From Escherichia phage SDYTW1-F1-2-2_3, in sequence record OR296290.1: 64,000 nt of DNA. One strand, 5' to 3'. Shown piece after piece: positions 53,768 to 55,021 of the stretch (positions are counted from its first letter, which is position 1; each line of letters starts with the position of its first letter). Below the pieces are notes generated by a model. The model did no database searches, was not told where the DNA came from, and saw only the letters and a program-made list of their open reading frames with translations. The translations under genes were made by a program, and so were the position numbers.

Positions 53768-54380
53768 CCTGAGCTTGAGCGATAATCCAATCTAAATCTG
53801 ACACTGCTGATTCAACAGTTGAGTCATTAAACAGCAGATATGTTTTTCTCTGCTCTCCTTCAATGTACGAGCGAGAGTCTCCATCGAAAGAACAACCATC
53901 CCTCAACACTTGGACAACTTGGACATTGAAATTCTTTTCTAGTTCTCGTACCTCTGCATCAAAACCTCCGTCAGTAAAAACAATAATGTCATCCTGACCC
54001 AGCCCTTCTTGTTTGATGCTCTTTACAGCAAGAGTCCCCATATGGTTGTTGCCGAACATAGGTTTTAAGAAGTCTTCACTTGTAGAAATCATCAAATCTC
54101 TTACAGACTTCCCTCCCCATTCTGGTCTAGGTTTTTCTTTCCATTCACGATCTTCATAACGTGCTAGAAAGTTTTCTAGAGGCATACCTAGTGCAGCAGC
54201 AGCTACCTTATACATTGGCTCCTTGAAAGATTTGGTTGAATAGCCATGATGGTACGAGTGTGCATTTACCCAAGCACTGGCTATTGTATCCTTACCACAA
54301 CCCGGAGGCCCATTAAGAATTACCACTAAAGGTTTATATTGGGAGCATTCCACCATATTAGTCAGTGCTGGATTATTCAT
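53745..54380 (-). CDS. P-loop nucleotide kinase (putative dNMP kinase)
   Basis: 211 aa; Walker-[12 protein letters not shown] near N-terminus. Confidence 0.45.
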
Positions 54381-55021
54381 GCTATTAGTCCTTGAAGTTC
54401 TTCTTTATCAAAATGCTTCTCTACCACATATTCATACAGATCTTTTAATTCTGCATAACGACGGTAGAAAGTTCCGTGTGACATACCAATAGTTTTCTGA
54501 ATGTGATCATGAGGAATACCCAAGAAGATCATTGAGAACATATTAGCTAACTTCTGAGTATCCATCGTATCACTTAAATCTTGGAAGAAGTAGAAGATAC
54601 GAGACTCCATGAATGGGTCACCAACAGAGTCTTGCTTATCCATAGCAATCTCTAAAGGACTATCAACCATATCAGGAGTACGGAACATATCAGCCTCTGG
54701 AATAGAGTAGATACGACGGTCCCCTACAGTCTGCCTATTTGAACGTATAGACCAGATAATGTTCTTGACTCGATAAGTCATATGCTCTTGGTCTTTCTCA
54801 TCCTCTAGGACTCTCTCATCCTGCTTAGCGAAGACAAATCTCCAAGCGTTCAAGAGCACTTCCTGTGCTACATCTTCTGCTTCATGGTAATCTCTGATAT
54901 CATACATGAAGAATTTGTGAACCACTTTCCAGTTCACTCTGTAAAACTCTTCATAGTTTGAGATGTATTTAATAGGGATTCCATGAATGCGATATCTTGT
55001 AGGTGTTGTCTTCTTCGCCAT
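54377..55021 (-). CDS. phage-encoded sigma-70-family sigma factor
   Basis: 214 aa; [14 protein letters not shown] resembles sigma region 2; C-terminal helix-turn-helix-like segment resembles region 4. Confidence 0.6.

Follow-up and report, generated by a model that had tools for sequence, protein, structure and literature searches.

The stretch of DNA analyzed here, referred to as the window, comprises 64,000 nucleotides of Escherichia phage SDYTW1-F1-2-2_3 (record OR296290.1). Our analysis focused on an open reading frame (ORF) at 54377..55021, which a first-pass annotation, made from the sequence alone, had taken to encode a phage sigma factor of the phiEco32 type that redirects the host RNA polymerase. 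The ORF is indeed ATG-initiated and encodes 214 amino acids plus stop; it lies on the minus strand, the strand having been left out of the annotation. Its ATG shares one nucleotide with the stop of an upstream gp38-like ORF (TAATG) and its stop shares four nucleotides with the start of a downstream gene for a deoxynucleoside monophosphate (dNMP) kinase, overlaps that are typical of tight phage gene packing. The window as a whole is a permuted phiEco32-like Kuravirus genome, collinear with the phiEco32 reference across the entire 64 kb (window 1-20642 corresponds to phiEco32 54543-77533, and window 20471-63807 to phiEco32 1-44560). A DNA search of the region matched 98 phage records, almost all of them from Escherichia Kuravirus, at 93-95% identity. 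The counterpart of the ORF in phiEco32 is gene 36, at 34166-34810 of that genome, of which we consider it the orthologue.

The ORF protein is 98.6% identical to phiEco32 gp36 over 214 amino acids, both proteins being 214 amino acids long, and differs from it by three substitutions, namely K28R, F209L and T214A. Among solved structures it matches chain F of PDB 9M7Y, deposited as 'RNA polymerase ECF sigma factor' (ECF standing for extracytoplasmic function), at 99% identity over the full length (E=3.9e-144). This entry is the cryo-electron microscopy (cryo-EM) structure of a gp79-dependent open complex, in which E. coli RNA polymerase is bound by phiEco32 gp36 and promoter P68 (PMC12276001). 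A PHROGs profile search likewise returned phrog_1740, 'RNA polymerase sigma factor', with E=3.4e-45. A search of 5.8 billion protein sequences yielded only 19 clusters, at 48-98% identity, none of them with a precomputed Pfam domain. For gp36 itself, binding to the host RNA polymerase, transcription from tAATGTAtA promoters and the presence of sigma2- and sigma4-like domains have all been shown experimentally (PMC12276001, PMC8948821). We thus hold with high confidence that the ORF encodes a phage promoter-specificity (sigma) subunit, orthologous to gp36, that redirects the host RNA polymerase, as the first-pass annotation had proposed. The protein, its promoters and its structure are already published, and the finding is known in detail as a textbook-style case.

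The domain limits used here come from the published structure (PMC12276001). An N-terminal, sigma2-like domain, in which the Sigma70_r2 match described below is found, spans residues 1-103 (54713..55021, minus strand); a linker spans residues 104-137 (54611..54712, minus strand); and a C-terminal, sigma4-like helix-turn-helix (HTH) domain, recognized by conserved contacts and by helices in our model, spans residues 138-214 (54380..54610, minus strand). The sigma2- and sigma4-like placement of the two domains on the clamp helices and on the flap-tip helix is taken from the structure of the 99% identical protein (9M7Y, PMC12276001). In gp36, the N-terminal domain resembles sigma2 and binds the clamp helices via D44, E47, E49, D50 and E54; W90 stacks on -12T and Y83 on -11G, while R84, S91, S94, N95, E79 and H80 touch positions -14 to -11 (PMC12276001). 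The linker threads the active-centre cleft, like sigma region 3.2, and the C-terminal domain resembles sigma4, binding the flap-tip helix via M138, I142, F166, L167 and F204, with R187 touching -37G and Y186 touching the T opposite -34A (PMC12276001). All 20 published contact residues are conserved in the window protein, and most are invariant across an alignment of 19 sequences (the window protein and 18 homologues). The acidic clamp-helix residues are all present, with D44, E47 and D50 invariant in the alignment; the -10 recognition residues (E79, H80, Y83, R84, W90, S91, S94 and N95) are all present and mostly invariant; and both -35 contacts (Y186 and R187) are found, together with every residue of the groove that holds the flap-tip helix.

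The predicted fold agrees with this assignment. A model made by AlphaFold from the single sequence reached a predicted local distance difference test (pLDDT) score of only 43 and was unusable; it was replaced by a model based on the 19-sequence alignment, with a pLDDT of 70 overall and near 80 in both domains. The linker is disordered in this model, with a pLDDT below 50 for residues 98-132. The C-terminal HTH noted in the first-pass annotation appears as helices 171-178 and 182-203. When the model was compared with the PDB by Foldseek, 9m7y_F was the top match (E=7.6e-23), and the matches after it are for the most part full-length sigma factors, chiefly ECF and some other, with probabilities from 1.0 down to about 0.8. 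The ECF matches include SigE, SigL, SigH and SigK of M. tuberculosis, AlgU of P. aeruginosa, SigW of B. subtilis and sigma-E of E. coli. A profile built from the homologue alignment was also run against PDB sequences, and beyond 9m7y_F it gave only marginal ECF sigma matches (E of at least 0.055).

The promoters that such a factor would read can be located in the window. The gp36 promoter consensus is tAATGTAtA, transcription starting 6-8 bp downstream of it, and six mapped promoters precede genes 6, 13, 26, 40, 58 and 68 (PMC8948821; PMC4281155). Their elements are listed as TAATGTAgA for P6, TAATGTATA for P13, P26, P40 and P58, and aAATGTATA for P68 (PMC8948821 supplement). The recurrent motif reported in the first-pass annotation was upheld, as TAATGTATA occurs five times in the window, counting both strands, against 0.71 expected, a number reached by none of 100 shuffles. 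The bare hexamer AATGTA was tried as a genome-wide signal and was not enriched (48 copies against 44.4 expected), so that only the 9-mer is informative. Every copy of TAATGTATA is intergenic and has an exact phiEco32 counterpart, and four of the copies lie upstream of co-oriented genes that have Shine-Dalgarno sequences, with 27-52 nt between the predicted +1 and the ATG. These four fall at published promoter positions, which bears out the tie between sigma factor and motif that the annotation had drawn and which is itself already in the literature. On the plus strand, they are the P13-equivalent late promoter (29536..29544, predicted +1 at 29551, gene start at 29578) and the P26-equivalent late promoter (47043..47051, predicted +1 at 47058, likely gene start at 47090). 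On the minus strand, they are the P40-equivalent middle promoter (56434..56442, predicted +1 at 56427, start of the gene 40 homologue at 56375) and the P58-equivalent middle promoter (62350..62358, predicted +1 at 62343, gene start at 62313). A P6-equivalent element, TAATGTAGA, is found at 22014..22022 (plus strand) upstream of the gene 6 homologue, whose ATG is at 22034 (PMC8948821 supplement), and P68 falls outside the window. At 13 of the 13 sites that we tabulated from the window and phiEco32, position -34 is A and position -37 is a purine, which fits the reported contacts of Y186 and R187. For annotation purposes, the window is thereby identified as a phiEco32-like Kuravirus in which P6, P13, P26, P40 and P58 are placed to the base.

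Beyond these shared positions, the gp36 promoters fall into two classes of upstream element. In the late promoters P13 and P26, TAAGACCTA stands at -38 to -30 (29513-29522 and 47020-47029, plus strand), and GGTAGT at -37 to -32 is common to P40 (56459-56464, minus strand, in this window), P68 and the fifth copy of the 9-mer discussed below (56603-56610, plus strand). The program call places the start of the 1541-amino-acid gene 26 homologue at 47045, an ATG that lies within the promoter element; comparison with phiEco32 and a Shine-Dalgarno sequence indicate that the true start is probably the ATG at 47090. In two distant relatives whose sigma factors are about 53% identical, the position equivalent to P40 (L009 3879-3887 and L010 3882-3890, respectively) carries TAATGGATA, preceded upstream by TGGTACTCTA, which hints at a shift of promoter specificity in that branch. 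Neither of these two loci has an oppositely oriented copy of the motif.

The first-pass annotation had also noted that no single-subunit RNA polymerase is seen in the window, and this held. None of the eight window ORFs of at least 450 amino acids matches an RNA polymerase family in Pfam, the T7-type family included. Six of these ORFs encode a terminase, a portal, tail fibres, an Ig-domain protein and DNA polymerase A, and the other two match no Pfam family. These two, of 559 and 1541 amino acids, both fall in PHROGs of unknown function. We considered the 1541-amino-acid protein as a virion RNA polymerase and set this idea aside, given no Pfam match, a PHROG of unknown function and no positive evidence. 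It should be noted that phiEco32 is reported to rely on the host RNA polymerase (PMC8948821).

The mechanism described next was shown step by step for the orthologue gp36 and is carried over to this copy by analogy. The protein would bind the core RNA polymerase of E. coli, with the sigma2-like N-terminal domain sitting on the clamp helices and reading AATGTA at -14 to -9, while the C-terminal sigma4-like domain, sitting on the flap-tip helix, would contact -37 and -34, and the linker would pass through the active-centre cleft. The resulting holoenzyme would transcribe the middle genes (from P40 and P58, and from P68 outside the window) and the late genes (from P6, P13 and P26), in each case from a tAATGTAtA element expected about 7 nt upstream of the start site. 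In addition, gp79, whose gene would lie outside the window, should displace host sigma-70 and stabilize the gp36 open complex. With the host polymerase retargeted in this manner by a phage sigma and gp79, the phage needs no RNA polymerase of its own.

We found nothing that speaks against the identification as such, but some of the support for it is weak or missing, and these points should be considered alongside the evidence given above. They concern the expression of the gene, the partner protein gp79 and the sequence profiles, and each bears on a different alternative explanation.

With respect to expression, two phiEco32 genes are missing here on either side of the sigma gene, namely 35 (GTP-binding domain) and 37 (macrodomain, Appr-1-p processing) (window 53745-55194, minus strand). 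Together with gene 37, its sigma-70-type TGGACA-18-TATAAT promoter is absent, a promoter that was proposed, by bioinformatic prediction, to start sigma expression in phiEco32 (PMC8948821; PMC4281155). For this phage, the origin of the earliest sigma transcripts therefore has to be inferred. The gene could still encode a working gp36-type sigma factor, with regulation unlike that of phiEco32, in which another host-dependent promoter or early read-through gives different timing. Apart from the loss of genes 35 and 37 and of the promoter, this explanation draws on the tight packing of the sigma ORF against both neighbours and on an insertion of about 45 bp (55535-55582, minus strand) that phiEco32 lacks and that we did not see in the other loci compared. 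The insertion comes directly after a terminator-like hairpin with a T run (55582..55607, hairpin at 55590-55607, minus strand), which is conserved in phiEco32 and separates the gene 40 homologue from the gp39/gp38/sigma block. It contains a sigma-70-like promoter candidate with a perfect TATAAT, TGGAGA-18-TATAAT (55552..55581, minus strand), which may, on weak evidence, supply the first, host-dependent transcription of the sigma gene and may act as a host-type promoter of the gp39-gp38-sigma block. Another candidate, ATGAGA-17-TATAAT (55253-55281), has been conserved in most relatives. A scan for sigma-70-type promoters around the sigma gene, however, found 7 sites against 8.9 expected by chance, so that both candidates are to be regarded only as leads. 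Moreover, gene 37 is also missing from the characterized relatives NJ01, ECBP2, KBNP1711 and myPSH2311; a promoter inside gene 37 is thus not a conserved feature and is evidently dispensable, and in phiEco32 itself it is only a bioinformatic prediction (PMC8948821). Taken together, a departure from the phiEco32 mode of regulation is possible, and we consider it the less probable state of affairs. One further difference at this locus is that the dNMP kinase homologue is 211 amino acids long here and 297 in phiEco32.

With respect to the partner protein, a tblastn search of the window with gp79 gave no match, as the syntenic stretch, phiEco32 44.6-54.5 kb, lies outside the window. In phiEco32 the gp79 gene is located at 52601-52849, within the approximately 10 kb that have no window counterpart, and about 13 kb of the genome of the present phage lie outside the 64 kb that were covered. 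Since gp79 homologues are reported in all phages of the phiEco32 subgroup (PMC8948821), a gp79 gene is likely to be present in the remainder of this genome. The lack of a visible gp79 in the window, together with the three amino-acid differences from gp36, could be read as signs that this copy is inactive or altered in promoter specificity. We judge this very improbable, given that none of the three substitutions falls at a published contact residue, that the 9-mers of the window are the same as those of phiEco32 and stand at the same places, and that the region syntenic with the gp79 gene of the subgroup is simply beyond the window.

With respect to the profiles, a search against sigma-70 regions 2 and 4 was the check suggested in the first-pass annotation, and its outcome was marginal. 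The Pfam Sigma70_r2 family (PF04542) matched residues 24-62 with 19 bits (E=1.2e-3), a barely positive result that falls short of the Pfam cut-off of 24; the 14-letter segment that the annotation had singled out as region-2-like lies within this match, at residues 48-61. For sigma-70 region 4, no Pfam match was obtained at E<=10. The NCBIfam model TIGR02937 (sigma70-ECF superfamily) spans both domains, at residues 23-192, but reached 23 bits where 42.9 are required (E=4.8e-5); after it come a number of ECF sigma sub-families, all far under their own cut-offs. When the 19 aligned sequences were scanned singly, Sigma70_r2 was touched by all 19 (best E=2.1e-4) and Sigma70_r4_2 by only two (best E=0.0036). 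By sequence profiles alone, the sigma assignment would be marginal. With region 2 sub-threshold and region 4 undetected, it is structure, and not the profiles, that decides membership, and membership in the sigma-70 family rests on the solved structure and on the fold search that returned ECF sigma factors. Such profiles could leave room for an ordinary HTH DNA-binding regulator, a repressor or activator that does not replace the sigma in the polymerase, and to this one may add the weak HTH_23 or TetR_N matches of some homologues, the name 'YerC' in the source annotation of one homologue and a Trp-repressor-like chain far down the Foldseek list, but we give this explanation next to no credence, as it is refuted for the orthologue, the 99% identical protein being seen by cryo-EM where sigma2 and sigma4 sit on E. 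coli RNA polymerase and directing in vitro transcription (PMC12276001), and as the fold matches are predominantly full-length sigma factors, mostly ECF. The profile test, if taken by itself, could thus wrongly have been held against a sigma factor, and profile searches alone would under-call phage sigma factors of this kind. That curated profiles miss this sigma family is a useful caution.

The protein belongs to the gp36-type phage sigma factors, as every defining feature that can be examined in the window was found. It resembles phiEco32 gp36 in length, contact residues, genome position and the presence of tAATGTAtA at P6, P13, P26, P40 and P58, and differs in K28R, F209L and T214A and in the absence of genes 35 and 37 and of the gene 37 promoter. 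The relation to the ECF (group 4) sigma factors is looser. In fold and in mode of action the protein resembles a group 4 (ECF-like) factor of the sigma-70 family. The architecture is shared, with a sigma2-linker-sigma4 arrangement of about 200 amino acids and no region 1.1 or region 3 domain, and ECF factors (E. coli sigma-E, M. tuberculosis SigE/SigL/SigH and P. aeruginosa AlgU) are the best fold matches after gp36 and also the best weak sequence matches of the window protein. ECF promoters are bipartite, with conserved -35 'AAC' and -10 'CGT'-like elements. No such bipartite promoter is found here; instead, tAATGTAtA stands at -15 to -7, and upstream only -34A and a purine at -37 are shared. 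The neighbours of the sigma gene are the dNMP kinase, a PHROG of unknown function and an Rz-like spanin, none of which is recognizable as an anti-sigma, although a small neighbour of unknown function might still be one. Given scores under every curated sequence threshold of the sigma-70 family, the unrelated promoter and the lack of a recognizable anti-sigma, the GenBank label 'ECF sigma factor' is a loose one. In the structure, gp36 also departs from ECF factors in a first helix rotated by about 70 degrees, a shorter sigma4 helix 4 and a flap-tip helix rotated by about 100 degrees (PMC12276001). We would class the protein as a phage branch of the sigma-70 family that is divergent in sequence and confirmed by structure, and would not call it an ECF sigma in the narrow meaning of the term.

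In other phages, too, a phage sigma swaps in on the host core and switches temporal gene classes, as in the case of T4 gp55 and SPO1 gp28/gp34, the sequences of which are unrelated or very distant to that of the window protein. T4 gp55 has no domain of the sigma4 type and requires gp33 and the sliding clamp, whereas the co-factor in the gp36 system is gp79. Closer at hand, the distant phiEco32-like Salmonella phage 7-11 likewise places a late sigma of its own, SaPh711_gp47, on the host core, with promoters at similar genome positions (PMC8948821). SaPh711_gp47, however, is only about 15% identical to gp36 and uses a bipartite promoter, GTAAtg-(16)-aCTA, and phage 7-11 lacks a gp79 partner, host shut-off and a middle class of genes (PMC8948821).

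As for the genome ends, phiEco32 77042-77533 and 1-463 both map within window 20164-20976, where the two phiEco32 end segments overlap at 20471-20642. With both ends mapping to this junction, the sequence derives from a permuted or circularly assembled copy in which the terminal repeat is present once.

The fifth exact copy of TAATGTATA (56626-56634, plus strand; element span 56603..56634) does not belong to the published set. It is absent from the promoter table of PMC8948821, though it may be mentioned in Pavlova 2012. It lies 183 bp from P40 and faces away from it, in the opposite direction and against the surrounding minus-strand middle genes. At -38 to -31 of this copy stands TGGTAGTA (56603-56610), which supplies -37G and -34A and is nearly equal to the upstream element of P68, TTGGTAGTAGATAT. 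Both -37G and -34A were shown to be essential at P68 (PMC12276001). In 12 of 12 Kuravirus genomes the 9-mer and the P68-like TGGTAGTA(G)AT element are exact and their spacing is fixed, while the flanks diverge, and the sequence between the two divergent promoters, that is, P40 and the unlisted copy, is rearranged among these genomes.

No conserved ORF was found downstream of the unlisted copy. What does follow is a hairpin, AUAGCU-GAUAA-AGUUAU (56641-56657), which starts exactly at the predicted +1 (56641). Its pairing is maintained by compensatory changes of the types CG/UA/AU and UA/GC. ECBP2 has the stem AUAGUU/AACUAU and four genomes have AUAGCU/AGCUAU, whereas the stem of MN05, AGAGUUA/UAACUCU, is a wholly different one; KBNP1711 (AUAGAU/UUCUAU) retains five of the six pairs, with a U-U mismatch in place of the other. 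Across the alignment, pairing holds in 98.6% of cells, and the covariation score of 0.29 (0.13 in shuffles) was reached by none of 500 shuffles, although related sequences can exceed shuffles without any structure and only six pairs are involved. Slid registers of the hairpin give 21-50% pairing, and its G-U pairs fit RNA of the plus strand only. On thermodynamic folding of the putative RNA, both strands did better than shuffles (z of -2.9 and -3.5), and as both fold well, energy cannot show which strand matters. An Rfam scan of 55400-57200 gave no match at E<=1, and literature searches on the bare motif and on RNA-seq or small RNAs of Kuravirus returned nothing specific.

We tentatively suggest that the copy at 56626-56634 might be a seventh gp36-dependent promoter, producing a non-coding RNA of about 140-190 nt or activating a nearby AT-rich origin of replication, an interpretation that we think has a modest chance of being correct. 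Alternatively, it could be a non-productive polymerase binding site. If confirmed, an unlisted, oppositely oriented gp36-type promoter with a covarying hairpin would add an element to a well-studied transcription programme.

An insertion of about 120 bp between the two divergent promoters contains an ORF for a basic protein of 47 amino acids (56460-56603, minus strand), which has no PHROG match and may or may not be a gene. The insertion also occurs in an IMG/VR contig (L004) but not in phiEco32.

Further downstream of the unlisted copy lies a non-coding block of about 115 nt (56725-56835; the observation also takes in 56800-56950), which hardly varies among the 12 aligned genomes. It was detected in 98 of 98 matching Kuravirus records, and where an identity is listed for a record it is about 87-99%. 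This block could be a terminator, part of an RNA or an origin. It includes a hairpin, GCAGG-AGCCA-CCTGC, a direct repeat, TAGGGACT, present twice, and a stem of 10-15 bp, ATAGAGAAT...ATTCTCTAT, which is followed on the minus strand by a T run and is probably a terminator. The block gives way to a stretch of 22-23% G+C.

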